Source: a virus (taxonomy: Duplodnaviria > Caudoviricetes). From it: DNA of 64,000 nt. Below the pieces are notes generated by a model. It worked only from the letters and a program-made list of their open reading frames with translations, searched no databases and was not told the DNA's origin. Positions 11,585 through 64,000 of the stretch are shown one piece after another. Position 1 is the stretch's first letter, and every line of letters starts with the position of its first letter. The stretch covers positions 11,381 through 75,380 of IMG/VR virus record IMGVR_UViG_2974528942_000001; one strand, written 5' to 3'. The position numbers and the translations under genes were made by a program.

Positions 11585-14500
11585 GTGCTTACCACTGATA
11601 TGATCATCGCGATTCACGCGAGGACAGCTCAGGCGCAGCGGCAGCTGGCACAGATGCAGGGACAGCTCAAGGCACTCGAACGCGCTGGCATAGACTCAAC
11701 CAACTCGGTGGGTCGCTCCGTTAATGGTCTCGATCGAACCAGTGAGCGGGCGCGCGCGAACTCGAACAAGCCCTGGTTCTCGCAGATGCGAGCGAGTGGT
11801 TCTCAGATTCAATGGGTAGGCAGGCAGATGTCTGTCGGCCTAACTCTGCCGTTGATCGGCGCGATGGCGATGGGTACCAAGTTCGCTCTCGACTTCGAGA
11901 AGAACATGACCCGTGTGTCCAAGGTCTATGGTGACTCTGCGCTACAGGTCTCTCTCGGCAGTAAGGGCATGCAGGAGGAAGTCGACGCCCTGGGTCGCGC
12001 GTTCGTGGAGCTTGGAAACAAGTACGGGCAGAGCGCCGCCGATGTGGCGGAGATCGGCTCCTCCTGGGCGGCTGCCGGTAGCTCGGGTCGCGCACTTGCA
12101 AAGCAAACCGAGCTGACCATGCAGACCATGGTCCTCGGTGAGATGACGGCAGCTGAGGCAACGGAAGCGCTCATCTCGATCCAGGCTCAGTGGGGTGTGG
12201 TCACCGAGTCCAACCAGGACAAGATCGAGGCTGCAGGTGGTGCGGTTCGGAACCGCGCCAAGGATGAGATGAGTCTCACAAATATCCTGCGCCAGCTGAA
12301 CGCGGTCGAGAACGAGACCGGCGCGAAGATGCAGGACCTTGTCAAGGGTTACCAGCGTGCGTCGGGTACCGCCCGGTCGGCAGGTGTGGAAACCGGCGAG
12401 CTTGCTGCAATGATCGCGGCGTTGGTGCCCGCCGCCGGTGGTGCCGCCGAAGCAGGAACCGCCCTGCGTACCATGCTCAACCGCGTGATGACGCCGATGA
12501 ACGACGCCAAGGAAGTCTTGGCGAAGATGAACATCGACGTCACCAAGTCCGACTGGGTCACCAAGTCTGCGACCGAGCGACTCGAGGTCATGGCCAAGGC
12601 CTACCCGAAGTTGACTGGTGCGCAGCAGCAGTGGCTTGGCTTCGTGATCGCCGGTCGCTGGCACGTCAACCGCTTCATGATCCTCATGAACGCGATGGGC
12701 AACGCGAACAGCTACTATGGCAAGACACTCAAGACCCTGAGCGATCAGGCTCGTGTCACTCGCATCGCCGAAAAAGAGCTCGAAGCAGTTCTGACATCGA
12801 ACCCGCAGCGTATGAAGCAGGCGGGCGCGATCATCCAGAACTCGCTGATGAAGGCGATGATTCCGCTTGTCCCGATGATCACGCAGGTTGCCCTGTGGTT
12901 CGGCAAGCTGGCGAACGCCTTCGCGGAGATACCTCCGCACATCAGGACTACCATACTCGCGGTTGCCCTCTTCCTGGGTGTGCTCGGTCCACTGATCATC
13001 TTCCTCGGAATGATCAAGCTCTCGATCGGCATGCTTGCACCAGCGTTCATCGCCATGGCGAAGTTCGTCTTGCTGCCGCTCAAGCCCTTCATGATGATGT
13101 TCGCCCTCGTTGGCAAGGGTCTGACCGCGCTGCCTATCGCCGCAATCGGTGCAGCCAGGGGCATGCTGCTCGGCTTCATGTTCATGATCAAGAGCGTTGC
13201 CATGGTCGGCGCTGCCGTCGGCATGGTCGCTCCGATCGTGTCCACTGCACTGGGCATGGCGGCGACCGCTATCGTAGCCTGGGCTCCAACGGTCGCAGCA
13301 CTGCCTGCCATGATCGCGCTTGCGGTCGGCAAGATTGCACTCGTGATCGACGCACTCATGGCGCTCATGAGGTTCCGCGTCACAGCCGGAATGGCAGTGA
13401 TCACCACACTCTTTGCTGCAGGGCCGATCGCATGGCGGACGGCACTCGCAGTCTCGACCGGCGGCATCGCACTGGTCATGGACGCACTCATGGTGCTTCT
13501 CCGTGTGCGTTTGGTGGCCTGGTTCGCCGCAACCAAGGCCCTGTTCTTCGCTGGTCCGCTCGCCTGGGCTGCAGCAATGCGTACCGGCATGGCAGCTGTG
13601 TACGCCTTCATGGTCGCAGGGCTTGCCGCCAAGCTGACAGCTACTCGAGTGTGGGCCGTGGCGTCTGCACTGATCCACAAGATTCATTGGGCCACTGTAG
13701 TTGCGATCGCCAAGACTGGCATGATCGCACTGGTCACCAATGTGCGCAAGCTTGCGCCACTACTTCTCAAGGCACTGGCCAGTCCGTGGGTCTTGGCTAT
13801 CGGTGCCATCGTCCTGGTCCTGACACTCTTTAAGGATCAGGTGAAGGCCGCGATCACCAACGTGGTCGACTACTTCCGCAACCTTCCGGCTGGCATCAAG
13901 CAGGGTCTCGCCCCGATCGGTCGCATGTTCACTGCGATCAAGAACGGCATCCTCAAGGCATTCAACGCGCTGCCCGAGGGTATCAAGAACGCGATGCTCG
14001 CAGTCATCAATGTGGTCAAGGCCGCGGCGATGGCAGTGTACCGACTGTTCAGTTACCTGAACCCCTTCGCTCACCACTCCCCATCCCTGGTCGAGAACGT
14101 CACCAACGGTATGGCAGTGGTGAACGATCAGTTTGCCAACAGCGCTCGGGTTGCCGAGTCTAACATCAACCGTATCCACTCTGCAATTAAGTCCCTGCAG
14201 GGTGCGGGCGCGGGCATGGTGACCGCCAACGATCAGGCGAAGGATGCAGAGTTCCGCGGCAACGCGGCCAAGGCCGGTGGCGCCAGCGCTCTACCTCAGT
14301 ACGACACACTGAATCGACAGGTCGCCGAGAGCAAGCGTGCCCTCGAGTCCATGAACACTGCGATTGAAGCGCAGGAAGATAAGGTCGAGTCGGTTCAGAA
14401 GTCGATCAAGCGATACGATCAGACGATCAAGGAGATGAATAAGAGCCTGGAGACCACGAAGTCCATCCAGGCCAGCGTGGGTGACGCGCTGGATTCAGCG

Positions 14501-60387: not shown

Positions 60388-60555
60388 TCAGTCTGTGGAC
60401 TGCTTGCGGATGCCCAGCAGGCGCTCGTGCCTGATGTCGGCTACACGCTTGGCCTCGACCTCGGCGACATGACGCTGTTCGTCGAGGTCATCCTGCAGGG
60501 TGGCGAGCTGATGGTCGGTGAGTCGATTGAGCTCACGCTTGCTGCGAGGTGGCAT
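60388..60555 (-). CDS. Small coiled-coil protein (55 aa)
   Basis: GAAAGGGG start-associated sequence; MPPRSKRELNRL... Confidence 0.65.
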   Translation of the reverse strand: MPPRSKRELNRLTDHQLATLQDDLDEQRHVAEVEAKRVADIRHERLLGIRKQSTD

Positions 60556-60588
60556 ACTACCATCCCCTTTCTGGTGGTTGGTTGGAAG

Positions 60589-60630
60589 AGCGATGACCGG
60601 GCAGCATCCCCTGCGTGCCCGGTCATCGCT
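60589..60630 (-). terminator. 15-bp perfect hairpin
   Basis: AGCGATGACCGGGCA / TGCCCGGTCATCGCT; short TCTT tail on the minus strand. Confidence 0.6.
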
Positions 60631-60691
60631 GCTGTGGGTGGGCAGGACTCGCACCTGCCTGTGTGCTACTCACCCTCCCTTGCTGGGTAGA

Positions 60692-61630
60692 TCAGACCGC
60701 GATCGCACCCTTCACGCCCTGGCCGTCGGTGGCGGGGCGGAGGTTGGTCCACTCCCGATCCTTGCCCGACTTGGGGAACAGTGCGGCGGCGACTGCACCC
60801 GAGCTCGGGTTGTCGTCGCCGTACTCCTCGGAGACGTGCTTGGTGATGTCCACGATCTTGAGGAACGTGCCCGACTCGAGTCCCTCGAACGCCGACTCGA
60901 TGTGCTTGGCGACGCTGCGACGCGGCCCGTCGTAGCTCGAGACTCGGGTGCCGCCGCCGGACTTGCGAGCCTTCTTGGCCTTCTTGCCCTTGATGATGGC
61001 CAGCGCCACGGTCGCGACGTCACCGAGCTCGGGCTTGTCGTCCTCGTCGCGGTCCTCGGTGCCTTCCCAGTCGAGGTAGTTCGAGAGTTCCTCGAACGCG
61101 GTCTCGGTGTCGGGCACTTCGTAACCCTCGGCGTCGGTCGGCACGTTCTCGCGCAGGTAGTCGAGCGCGGTCTCGTGAGCCGCGACGAGCTTGCCGTACT
61201 CCTCCTTGGGGTCGACGGTGACAGCGGGTTCGGCGCTGGCCGAGCCGGCCTGGATCAGCTCGTTGATCGCGTTGAGGGTGACCGCGTTCGGGAAGCGGGC
61301 CTCGTTGATCGCGTTGCTGATCTCGTTCTGCAGCCACTTCTTGCCGAGGTTCTTGTACTTGATCCCGCCGGTGATCGCTCGGTAGGCGAGGACTGCGCCC
61401 TCGAGGAACGACTTGGCCGCGACTCCGGTGGCGTCGTCGGCCTCACGCAGCGCGACCTTGACCTGGTTCTCGAACTCGTCGATCGAGTCCTGGTGCGGAT
61501 CGGCCTCGGTCTCGGGGGTCTCGGTCGGCTCGGTGCCGGGAGCCGGGGCCTGCGCCTGCTCGGTCTCGACCTCGAACGCGGTCTCGTCGGTCTCGGTGTC
61601 GAAGTCGGTGTCGAAAACGTCTCGTGCCAT
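60692..61630 (-). CDS. Abundant acidic early protein (312 aa), possible C-terminal winged helix
   Basis: AAGGAGG RBS, extreme codon bias, D/E/T-rich N-terminus. Confidence 0.8.
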   Translation of the reverse strand: MARDVFDTDFDTETDETAFEVETEQAQAPAPGTEPTETPETEADPHQDSIDEFENQVKVALREADDATGVAAKSFLEGAVLAYRAITGGIKYKNLGKKWLQNEISNAINEARFPNAVTLNAINELIQAGSASAEPAVTVDPKEEYGKLVAAHETALDYLRENVPTDAEGYEVPDTETAFEELSNYLDWEGTEDRDEDDKPELGDVATVALAIIKGKKAKKARKSGGGTRVSSYDGPRRSVAKHIESAFEGLESGTFLKIVDITKHVSEEYGDDNPSSGAVAAALFPKSGKDREWTNLRPATDGQGVKGAIAV

Positions 61631-61674
61631 GATGGTGCCTCCTTGGTTGGGGGTGATTGGAACTTCTACTGGAT

Positions 61675-61704
61675 AGACTAGTTCAATGGTGGCACCATTG
61701 TCTA
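61675..61704 (-). promoter_or_regulatory. Promoter TAGACA-18-TAGTCT with spacer palindrome CAATGGTG-G-CACCATTG
   Basis: -35 at 61699-61704, -10 at 61675-61680; palindrome at 61684-61700. Confidence 0.7.
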
Positions 61705-61725
61705 GCCGTTGTGCGGGTTTGGTTG

Positions 61726-61741
61726 TGTGATGTAGGTCACA
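61726..61741. promoter_or_regulatory. Perfect CRP/GlxR-type site TGTGA-TGTAGG-TCACA
   Basis: Exact TGTGA-N6-TCACA with central TA; 21 bp upstream of the -35. Confidence 0.75.
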
Positions 61742-61770
61742 CAGCCGGGTTGGCCGTCGTGACCAGCCCC

Positions 61771-61809
61771 AGCCAGGGAGTTTGTATTGCTACAAACCCT
61801 TTCCTGGCT
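61771..61809 (-). terminator. Hairpin with GCAA tetraloop
   Basis: Minus strand AGCCAGG...GTTTGTA-GCAA-TACAAAC...CCTGGCT. Confidence 0.5.
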
Positions 61810-61826
61810 CGGACTCGGCACGCGGA

Positions 61827-62006
61827 CTAGATGAGCTGGTTCGGGGCCTTCGGTGCGGACCACAGCTCGGTCGGAGCGAACGCCAGGTCGAGCTGGGACT
61901 CGAGGATCCTGTCGAGCTCGCGCTGTTCGCGCTTGGTCGGCCGCCGGTACTTGGTTGTGCGGATGGTCTGGTCGTACTTGGACGTGTACTTGCGCGTGTG
62001 GGACAT
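61827..62006 (-). CDS. Small basic early protein (59 aa) with QLDLAF motif
   Basis: AGGAAGG RBS; below the 60-aa cutoff of the ORF track; phage-like codons. Confidence 0.7.
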   Translation of the reverse strand: MSHTRKYTSKYDQTIRTTKYRRPTKREQRELDRILESQLDLAFAPTELWSAPKAPNQLI

Positions 62007-62010
62007 GGTG

Positions 62011-62349
62011 TCAGGCCTTCCTGGCTAGTCGGAGGGTGTCCTCGAGGACCTTGGTGTAGATCTTGGCTGCCTGTGTGGCGAGGTAGGGCACTCGGGTGGC
62101 GTAGTGCAACTCCTGGACGTCGAGCGCTACGCATGCCACCTCGTACTCGAGTGAACTGCTGCTGCGCCATACTTCCACCGAGACCCAGCGGGACATGCTG
62201 GTCACGTCGACGTTGAGCCGGTAGGAACCGAGCTCGGCCTTGTCGGCGTCGAGGGAGCTGTCGTGAACAATCTCGATGAACTCCTCGAGTGCCTCGATGC
62301 AGCGGGCGATGGACTCGGGGCAGGTCGAGCCTGAGTAGATGGTGCGCAT
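62011..62349 (-). CDS. Hypothetical early protein (112 aa)
   Basis: GAAAG RBS; similar to its neighbour. Confidence 0.7.
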   Translation of the reverse strand: MRTIYSGSTCPESIARCIEALEEFIEIVHDSSLDADKAELGSYRLNVDVTSMSRWVSVEVWRSSSSLEYEVACVALDVQELHYATRVPYLATQAAKIYTKVLEDTLRLARKA

Positions 62350-62353
62350 GATC

Positions 62354-62656
62354 TTACCGGCTTTCTTGTGCGTTGTCGTAGAGTGCTGCGGCGATGTCGC
62401 CGAGCTTGGAGGTCGAGTCGTGCTTGACTACAGTCTCCATGAACCGCGAGATGTCGTCCCACTCATTCGAGCTCGAGAGCTTCTGCACCTTGACGTAGAA
62501 CCCTATGGTCGGCTCCGTCTCGAAGGGGTGCGCGTCTACGCGATAGTCTCCGACCAGGGGATCGGGATGGTTCTGATCGAGAGCCGTCATCTCGAGAGTG
62601 ATGAACTCGAGGGCTTCATCGAGCCATTGCGGACGTGTGGTGCTGTGGAACGACAT
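62354..62656 (-). CDS. Hypothetical early protein (100 aa)
   Basis: GAAAGG RBS; first gene under the 62.7-kb promoter. Confidence 0.7.
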   Translation of the reverse strand: MSFHSTTRPQWLDEALEFITLEMTALDQNHPDPLVGDYRVDAHPFETEPTIGFYVKVQKLSSSNEWDDISRFMETVVKHDSTSKLGDIAAALYDNAQESR

Positions 62657-62669
62657 GGTGATGCCTTTC

Positions 62670-62725
62670 TAGTTGCATGGTGCAACTATCTAGTTGAATG
62701 TTGCAATAGTTACGATCTGCAACTA
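62670..62725 (-). promoter_or_regulatory. Promoter TTGCAA-18-CACCAT overlaid by three 19-bp operator-like sites
   Basis: TAGTTGCATGGTGCAACTA (perfect IR), TAGTTGAATGTTGCAATAG, TAGTTACGATCTGCAACTA. Confidence 0.6.
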
Positions 62726-62751
62726 TCGAGATCAGTATTGTGGACTACGTC

Positions 62752-63237
62752 TCACAAACCACACAACTTGGCGACGTCCGCCCGGTACCGCTTGGGGACG
62801 TCGAGGCGTAGGGTGCGATGGGGCCAGAGCGACCTTTTCACGACTTCGCTGTACCGGACCACTGCGGAAAAATGTAGGTCATCGCGGTCTACGCGGCGTG
62901 TAGAACTCTTGTTCTTTTTCACCCTAGCGGTTTTCGGTGCCGGGTTTTTGGGTTGCACAGGTCGCATGGTCTGATTCTCAACCATCGTTTTCACGTTGGC
63001 TTGAATCCCCGTCATGTTCCAACTATAGGCCGTGGTCTCGTCTGGGCGTGTTTCATCTTTGCCCGCCCAATTGTCCTTGTTGACACAATCCGCCTCGGTC
63101 CGTTCCCGCATAGCGATCACGGTATTCAGCGGTGTTAGCGGGGTGTTGATACCCGTACCCCGTTTAGCGGTGGCGCGTACCCGTTTGGTCACGGTGACCG
63201 TACGTGGTGCAGACGCCATAGGCAGCGGTCTACCCAT
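62752..63237 (-). CDS. Possible basic protein (161 aa), atypical codon usage
   Basis: Good GAAAGGG RBS, but rare codons (CTA, AAA, CAA, AGT) and it overlaps a short-motif array. Confidence 0.4.
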   Translation of the reverse strand: MGRPLPMASAPRTVTVTKRVRATAKRGTGINTPLTPLNTVIAMRERTEADCVNKDNWAGKDETRPDETTAYSWNMTGIQANVKTMVENQTMRPVQPKNPAPKTARVKKNKSSTRRVDRDDLHFSAVVRYSEVVKRSLWPHRTLRLDVPKRYRADVAKLCGL

Positions 63238-63239
63238 GA

Positions 63240-63881
63240 TGAACCCTTTCGTTGTGTGGTTCTAGTCCGTTGTGCAGCGATGAAACTGCACGCATGTATT
63301 GATCTAGCGTGTCACTATTGCCATGCGTCAACCCTACGGTTGCCAGCGGTCGACCCGTCCGTTTCATTCGGTGACCATCGCGCGGTCGTTCCTACACAAC
63401 TCATGGAGACCCTAGACGTCCATGCCGTTGTGCGTGTGGGCCGGTATAGCGGTCGCCCGCTAGAACCCTAGTCCGTTAGCGGTCTAGTGCCCGTATCACC
63501 CGCGCGAAGCGGATCTAGATTCAATTTGTATCGCGGTGGTTAGCGATGAACCCTAGACAAAGTCTGCCCTTCCACAGTTCGCGCGTCCGCTGAGCCGGTC
63601 TTATGTACGTGCATGAACCCGCTGGTTGCGGGGGCCGTAGCTATTACACATGCACTGCCGTGCGGTGCCTCACGTTCTAGTGATCCCGTACCGGCTAGAA
63701 CCCTAGCCGTCATCCGCTTTAGGGTGCGTTCGACCCGCTACCGTGTTTCCACGGCCTATCCGCTTTTTCGCAGCGTTCATCGCGGCGCGTGTGCCCGTAG
63801 GTCCCGCGCGTACCGACCGCCATCCCGCCCGCGCCGCGCGCGGGACCGGGGCCGGGGGGCGATTGCCCCCCCCGATTCGGT
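63240..63881 (-). ncRNA. Candidate long structured leader/ncRNA or iteron-like array
   Basis: No ORF with phage codon usage; multiple hairpins; repeated GAACCC(TAG), CTAG, AGCGGT; lies directly downstream of the 63.9-kb promoter. Confidence 0.4.
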
Positions 63882-63887
63882 AGGTCT

Positions 63888-63917
63888 ACCGTACCACGGC
63901 GCGTGGCACCACGGCAA
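63888..63917 (-). promoter_or_regulatory. Rightmost leftward promoter TTGCCG-18-TGG.TACGGT
   Basis: Spacer TGGTGCCACGCGCCGTGG differs at 2 positions from the 56.7-kb promoter spacer TGGTACCACACGCCGTGG. Confidence 0.75.
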
Positions 63918-63938
63918 CCCCCCCGGGGCCGCTGCGTG

Positions 63939-63954
63939 TGTGACGTGCGTCACA
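63939..63954. promoter_or_regulatory. Perfect CRP/GlxR-type site TGTGA-CGTGCG-TCACA
   Basis: Exact consensus; 21 bp upstream of the -35. Confidence 0.75.
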
Positions 63955-63968
63955 TTTGGGAGCGGGTT

Positions 63969-63990
63969 TTGTACCAGGGGTTGTACCAGG
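63969..63990. repeat. Direct repeat TTGTACCAGG x2
   Basis: Copies at 63969-63978 and 63981-63990. Confidence 0.7.
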
Positions 63991-64000
63991 CGCGTTATAC

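Follow-up and report, generated by a model that had tools for sequence, protein, structure and literature searches.

Candidate host Crp sites at two predicted leftward promoters near the right end of a Demosthenesvirus genome

The right end of the phage genome held in IMG/VR record IMGVR_UViG_2974528942_000001 carries two predicted leftward promoters, A and B, each preceded by an exact TGTGA-N6-TCACA palindrome of the Crp/GlxR type (boxes A and B). We analyzed bases 11381-75380 of this 75,380-bp genome, that is, its right 64 kb, referred to here as the window and numbered from its own first base. The window shares 97% identity with Gordonia phage Niagara and 83-93% with Kvothe, Teatealatte, Tredge, Hollow, Demosthenes and ASerpRocky; all of these belong to the genus Demosthenesvirus. 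The published phages Katyusha and Benczkowski14 of subcluster CS4 have Gordonia terrae 3612 as host, are without integrase or repressor and possess a direct terminal repeat (DTR) of 1,172 bp (PMC4919401, PMC5559632). The last 1,172 bp of the window are identical to genome positions 1-1172, a length equal to that of the published DTR (PMC4919401), so that the window ends where the virion DNA itself ends on the right. Promoter B lies within this repeat and leads through a non-coding leader into genes 99 to 96, of unknown function, while promoter A lies beyond gene 96 and is followed by the gene for gene product (gp) 95 (Table 1).

The sequence-only reading of this DNA had reported two perfect boxes and no others, and exactly this was found: the window holds two exact matches to TGTGA-N6-TCACA, against a mean of 0.09 in dinucleotide shuffles, and none of the 100 shuffles reached two. 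In the whole genome there is a single further site with one mismatch, at window position 12265 in the block of structural genes. As box B is contained in the DTR, a third copy occurs in virion DNA at genome position 1111, outside the window. Both boxes conform to the motif of Mycobacterium tuberculosis CRP (CRP_Mt), (C/T)GTGA-N6-TCAC(G/A), in which a change of G4 or C13 abolishes binding, R188, E189 and K193 of the protein contact bases, and G4 and C13 distinguish the sites from those of Cmr (PMC5758884). These two discriminator bases are present in every copy of boxes A and B that was examined, and the earlier assignment to the Crp/GlxR class holds in this respect as well as in the central TA, which is present in box A and in many site A copies of relatives. 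The density of boxes in the phage is ~27 sites per Mb compared with ~1.5 per Mb in host genomes, a difference of ~18-fold. A third candidate, made up of the half box TGTGAC and TGGTGCCACC (genome 1497-1535, outside the window), was not counted, its spacing being 15 nt shorter and a clear -10 being absent.

On the minus strand, site A consists of the box, 21 nt, the hexamer TAGACA, an 18-nt spacer (ATGGTGCCACCATTGAAC) and TAGTCT, and site B of the box, 21 nt, TTGCCG, an 18-nt spacer (TGGTGCCACGCGCCGTGG) and TACGGT. Rechecking of the coordinates upheld the 21-bp distance from box to -35, the 18-bp spacer and the occurrence of TGGTGCCAC within the spacer at both leftward promoters. Each has the make-up of a SigA-type promoter, namely a TANNNT -10 with a -35-like hexamer 16-18 bp upstream, and it is on this actinobacterial logic together with conservation that promoters A and B are predicted. 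With the -10 placed at -12 to -7, the box centers would lie at -65.5, 32 bp from the center of the -35. Both -35 hexamers had been described as suboptimal, but TAGACA matches TTGACA at five of six positions and hardly deserves the term. A sigma-54 reading of TGGCAC was rejected on account of a misfit in the downstream element; to our knowledge, RpoN is lacking in these hosts.

Table 1. Positions of the boxes, predicted promoter elements, genes and terminal repeat in the window.
Feature	Coordinates	Strand	Remarks
Box A, TGTGATGTAGGTCACA	61726..61741	.	exact Crp/GlxR-type palindrome upstream of gp95
Predicted -35 TAGACA, promoter A	61699..61704	-	21 nt downstream of box A; invariant in seven CS4 phages while the spacer varies
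TGGTGCCAC motif, promoter A	61689..61697	-	in the 18-nt spacer; core TGG-YR-CCA
Predicted -10 TAGTCT (TANNNT), promoter A	61675..61680	-	invariant in seven CS4 phages; inferred start near 61668
gp95 gene, 312 amino acids, phrog_6708	60692..61630	-	behind promoter A; homologues in 94 phage records
Imperfect hairpin	61773..61807	-	between gene 96 stop and box A; fully conserved in seven CS4 phages
Genes 99, 98, 97, 96 (161, 100, 112, 59 amino acids)	61827..63237	-	unknown function; downstream of promoter B and its leader
Box B, TGTGACGTGCGTCACA	63939..63954	.	exact match; 46 nt from right genome end, within the DTR
Predicted -35 TTGCCG, promoter B	63912..63917	-	21 nt downstream of box B
TGGTGCCAC motif, promoter B	63903..63911	-	at start of spacer; either orientation in relatives
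Predicted -10 TACGGT, promoter B	63888..63893	-	inferred start near 63881; TAGACT in demosthenes-type relatives
Right DTR copy	62829..64000	.	contains box B, promoter B, leader and first 136 codons of gene 99

The arrangement was compared among seven CS4 phages, the window and six relatives. In the relatives all ten half-site bases are kept at both boxes and the central six bases vary, with two versions (TGTAGG, TGTCGG) at site A and three (CGTGCG, CGTCCG, CATGCG) at site B. In addition to the invariant hexamers of promoter A, its spacer is informative: in several phages it has been replaced, always with retention of TGGTGCCA or TGGCACCA, and relatives carry TGGCACCAC, with the center dinucleotide inverted, in place of the promoter A motif TGGTGCCAC. 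At site B of Hollow, Demosthenes and ASerpRocky, about half of the 21 gap bases match the window and there is a compensated internal shift of 1 nt, the distance still being 21. Judged by this conservation, the boxes are under selection.

Homologues of gp95 were found in 94 phage records from the hosts Gordonia, Tsukamurella and Rhodococcus, and at the equivalent place upstream of them box A is present in CS1, CS2, CS3, TIN2 and TIN3/4, in flanking DNA that is unrelated. Woes (CS3; gp95 ~40% identity) has TGTGACGTAGATCACA, and five Montyvirus/CS2 phages (~40%) have TGTGACGTAGATCACA or TGTGACCTAGATCACA, in each case 20 nt from the -35; GTE7 (CS1; ~40%) has TGTGATCTACATCACA at 16 nt; and TIN2 (~40%) and the TIN3/4 type (36%) have CGTGACCCGCGTCACG and TGTGACGCACGTCACA, respectively, at 22 nt. 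Half-sites vary only at positions 1 and 16, and the variant of TIN2, CGTGA...TCACG, is one that the degeneracy of CRP_Mt allows. In PokyPuppy, GTE7 and TIN2, the box upstream of the gp95 homologue is the sole GTGA-N6-TCAC genome-wide. When all palindromes with 4-mer arms and gaps of 0-10 (2,816 patterns) were screened in eight 200-nt upstream regions, GTGA-N6-TCAC was the single pattern common to all eight, the two runners-up being the same box one base wider or shifted; upstream regions of different subclusters otherwise have 1-26 of ~193 8-mers in common. On a rough estimate from 1-3 sites per 75 kb (~0.005 per 200-bp window) and six lineages, chance placement of box A can be considered excluded.

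The identical geometry claimed for the two promoters, like the conservation of site and spacing proposed as a check on it, therefore has to be divided by lineage: the site is conserved within CS4 and, for box A, beyond it, and the 21-bp distance holds within CS4, but elsewhere the box lies 20, 16, 22 or 5 nt from the -35. The last of these values belongs to Woes, the only phage outside CS4 with an equivalent of box B, ~620 nt upstream of the first gene and 5 nt from a TAGACA hexamer; the Woes DTR measures 184 bp, and this second box lies outside it. In ReqiDocB7 and Perlina, both Rhodococcus phages, the promoters carry the consensus TTGACA, and no more than a half-site, GGGAA-N6-TCACA, is present. 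The full box is absent from two distant metagenomic relatives, and a third, L024, has two TGTGAGTCTCGTCAC[AG] boxes (1821-1836 and 2108-2123, 287 bp apart) that are not directly at gp95. Each L024 box stands ~75-95 nt upstream of a small gene starting AGGAGACGTTATG. The core promoters carry inverted repeats that differ by lineage, TGG-YR-CCA in CS4, CCCTAC-N8-GTAGGG in CS2/3 and an 11-bp repeat in GTE7. A further element, CTAGTACC, stands between box and -35 in CS1-3 and TIN phages (L009:3060-3075, L010, L011, L012, L014-L021) and is absent from CS4; Woes has two more copies of it around its second box.

A host protein suited to these boxes is available. Crp and motif data were taken from Gordonia genomes at genus level, standing in for G. 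terrae 3612, and the query was a 69-residue probe modeled on the C-terminus of M. tuberculosis CRP, which served as bait only, all conclusions being drawn from the real sequences returned. The bait returned Gordonia loci at 94-96% identity, with one close Crp copy per genome. Over its whole length, Gordonia Crp (224 amino acids) can be aligned with M. tuberculosis CRP (PDB 3H3U/3MZH, E=5e-136) and Corynebacterium glutamicum GlxR (4CYD, E=1e-110), and the recognition helix SRETVNKAL, which includes the base-contacting R188, E189 and K193, is identical in Gordonia Crp and M. tuberculosis CRP. A six-frame search of the whole 75,380-bp phage genome for HTH_Crp_2 (PF13545) gave no candidate, while all 14 control genomes were positive. 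In 31 Gordonia genomes, the exact motif was counted 221 times as against 29 times for a reversed control (~7.6-fold enrichment), and in one complete Gordonia genome eight of ten sites are intergenic. Among the genes next to the sites of that genome are those for isocitrate lyase, an Rpf-like transglycosylase, a molybdopterin oxidoreductase and an esterase. In M. tuberculosis, rpfA belongs to the targets of CRP, and GlxR targets in C. glutamicum include genes of the glyoxylate bypass. A table of M. tuberculosis CRP sites lists icl1 (PMC4117774). In that organism sites at -44.5, -54.5, -57.5, -59.5, -88.5 and -128.5 accompany Crp-dependent activation and those overlapping the start accompany repression; the protein reaches about the abundance of nucleoid proteins, and its occupancy and cAMP both drop in starvation (PMC4117774). 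Some host sites recur unchanged across species (TGTGACTAAGGTCACA in five genomes and TGTGAACGGAATCACA in four, G029, G025, G021, G016 and G006 among them), which suggests a conserved core Crp regulon in Gordonia.

Taken together, these observations lead us to favor, with moderate confidence, the reading that host Crp binds both boxes and probably activates the two promoters from about -65.5. The palindromes would be sites for the host Crp/GlxR orthologue, and a Crp dimer bound ~65 bp upstream of the predicted start, 32 bp or about three helical turns from the center of the -35, would assist the host SigA RNA polymerase at two places: the terminal promoter, located in the DTR and reading into genes 99-96, and the separate promoter of the conserved gp95. 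The box stays constant from lineage to lineage and the core-promoter repeats change, as would be expected if the protein that binds the box were an unchanging host protein. Full boxes go with -35 hexamers that depart from the consensus, and the full box is missing from the Rhodococcus relatives, whose -35 is TTGACA, a pattern that fits a host binder. Binding of Crp in vivo, the direction of its effect, early timing and dependence of promoters A and B on cAMP or energy state are all things that we infer from sequence. Gating of the two promoters by cAMP is possible, and it may be weak.

Several observations weigh against this reading. A scan for E. coli-type sigma-70 promoters calls none in 60500-64000. 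The distance from box to promoter varies by lineage, giving predicted centers of about -64.5, -59.5 and -65.5 and, for the second Woes box, about -49.5. The earlier remark that a center near -65 is not a canonical E. coli class I position agrees with the predicted -65.5, which would be 4 bp off phase (class I positions being -61.5, -71.5, -82.5 and -92.5 relative to a mapped start); in M. tuberculosis, the positions of activating sites do not have to follow the E. coli phases. M. tuberculosis CRP binds DNA with little dependence on cAMP, and in view of this and of its abundance any gating may be slight. Finally, box A always accompanies gp95, which by its model possesses a winged-helix domain, and a phage-encoded binder is therefore possible.

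This last point is the basis of the alternative that survives best, which we nevertheless regard as unlikely. A dimeric DNA-binding protein of the phage, foremost gp95 through its C-terminal winged helix, would recognize the boxes as an autoregulator or regulator of the early operon, and the match to the Crp consensus would be coincidence or mimicry. Autoregulation is conceivable because box A always stands directly upstream of gp95 homologues. The gp95 model comprises an acidic disordered N-terminus, a helical domain, a basic KKAKKARK linker and a C-terminal domain which, modeled alone, reaches a predicted local distance difference test score (pLDDT) of 81 and has winged helices, many of them DNA binders, as all 50 of its 50 best structural matches; within this domain, the putative recognition helix, PSSGA[VI]SARLF, shows the strongest conservation of any part of the protein. 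The TIN4 homologue is labeled 'putative structural protein', a label whose source is unverified, and gp95 might thus enter with the DNA. Against this, the Z scores of the structural matches are modest (5-6), winged helices mediate protein contacts too, and the recognition helix is equally kept in ReqiDocB7, Perlina and L023, all of which are without the full box, while the boxes of L024 precede other small genes and not gp95 directly. Nor could gp96-99 supply a universal binder, as they are not conserved outside CS4, where comparison with the right-end regions of other phages gave only a weak match to gp98, and they were rejected in that role. The box lies upstream of the -35, where the operator of an autorepressor is not typically found. 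In a Crp-rich cell, Crp would presumably occupy a perfect host consensus site anyway, and with a phage binder the agreement with that consensus, down to the degeneracy it allows, would have to be a coincidence.

It is less probable still that host Crp binds without activating, acting instead to repress, insulate or bend the DNA, for example by limiting read-through or aiding another factor. A predicted center away from the helical face used at E. coli class I promoters, and the different spacings among lineages, would agree with such a role, and in M. tuberculosis one CRP site at -76.5 goes with repression and many sites are without transcriptional effect; however, most CRP sites between -44 and -130 in that organism accompany activation (PMC4117774). 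The association of full boxes with non-consensus -35 hexamers, and their absence where the -35 is TTGACA, also speak against it, and a hairpin is already present between gene 96 and promoter A. That hairpin looks like a terminator, though without a U run, its function being inferred.

The idea that the boxes serve packaging or replication near the terminal repeat, or are functionless chance palindromes, is highly improbable: it has in its favor the position of box B close to the genome end, beside two TTGTACCAGG repeats and just downstream, in concatemers, of an AT-rich, repeat-laden region, but box A lies 2.2 kb inside the genome, is linked to a promoter and is kept in phages with different ends, the second Woes box is outside the DTR of that phage, and chance is ruled out by the shuffles, the genomes with a sole site and the palindrome screen.

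A bolder form of the host Crp reading would extend to the whole lineage of Cluster CS and the Tsukamurella TIN phages, and we put it forward only tentatively, as more doubtful than not. Host Crp would here be a co-activator that the gp95 promoter, and in CS4 the terminal operon as well, could not do without, so that the start of the lytic program would be throttled by the cAMP or energy state of the cell, running at full speed in growing cells and stalling in starved ones. The lineage-specific inverted repeats of the core promoters (in CS4, TGG-YR-CCA) would then be operators for phage proteins that later shut the promoters off.

The phage boxes share with the sites of the CRP_Mt (Rv3676)/GlxR regulons of Mycobacteriales the same 16-bp motif with G4 and C13, and Gordonia Crp shares the recognition helix; at activated M. 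tuberculosis promoters such as whiB1 (site at about -58), the CRP site is positioned upstream of the -35, as in the predicted phage promoters. Unlike those regulon sites, the boxes are on a lytic genome, are of consensus strength and ~18 times the host density, include one in a terminal repeat and are predicted from sequence. E. coli class I CAP promoters (Busby & Ebright, cited in PMC4117774), among them lac with CAP centered at -61.5, likewise have a dimer site upstream of the -35 on about the same helical face (32 bp between centers in the phage), and the phage arrangement differs from them in its predicted phase, in its 18-bp spacer and in having an actinobacterial polymerase and Crp. The early promoter Pe of phage Mu depends on host IHF and follows the same logic, in that an abundant host factor is borrowed to start phage transcription, although factor, phage and host lineages differ. 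The stoperators of Cluster A phages are also short conserved sites repeated at phage control regions, but they are asymmetric 13-bp sequences, numerous and specific to their own repressor (PMC5559632), in contrast to the present pair of palindromes, which equal a host consensus and occur in a phage that lacks a repressor. A literature search turned up no description of Crp-type sites at promoters of actinobacteriophages.

Should the two promoters be driven by host Crp, a strictly lytic actinobacteriophage would read a global metabolic regulator of its host at the start of infection. Phage productivity would then be tied to how well cells of Gordonia, Tsukamurella and perhaps other Mycobacteriales are supplied with carbon and energy, with a bearing on the use of phages against foaming sludge bacteria and on the logic of mycobacterial phage therapy, and the promoters themselves would be compact, natural Crp-dependent elements for genetic tools.

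With regard to the neighboring genes, Foldseek gave no significant match for full-length gp95, and VIA-align of the whole gp95 model gave matches limited to generic helical repeats at residues 43-132. A search of gp95-99 against Pfam returned no family and one against PHROGs only families of unknown function; a language model provided a weak lead from gp95 to HARE-HTH. The 95-nt gap upstream of gene 98 (62660-62745) contains a perfect inverted repeat, TAGTTGCA-N3-TGCAACTA, and two more copies of TAGTTG/TGCAACTA, which may form an operator set unrelated to the Crp boxes.

The non-coding leader between promoter B and gene 99 is ~640 nt long (63238-63887); GAACCCTAG has three exact copies in it (63463, 63548 and 63698) and two near ones (63240 and 63406). 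A hairpin of G/C runs (63854-63873) is located just past the predicted promoter B start. An Rfam search yielded a chance match alone (E=0.85). The DTR begins within gene 99 (62752-63237, minus strand), so that the left-end copy of this gene is without its last 25 codons and stop; promoter B and the leader are repeated there as well. Between box B and the right genome end, TTGTACCAGG occurs twice, 13 nt apart (63968-63990), and the last 46 nt of the genome are near-invariant in the seven phages and may be an end-recognition sequence. To the left of the window, genome 1173-1860 is AT-rich and includes, besides several AAGAAACTATAA/TTATAGTT repeats, a strong terminator located after gene 1; this region is directly upstream of box B in concatemers, and it could be an origin or packaging region.

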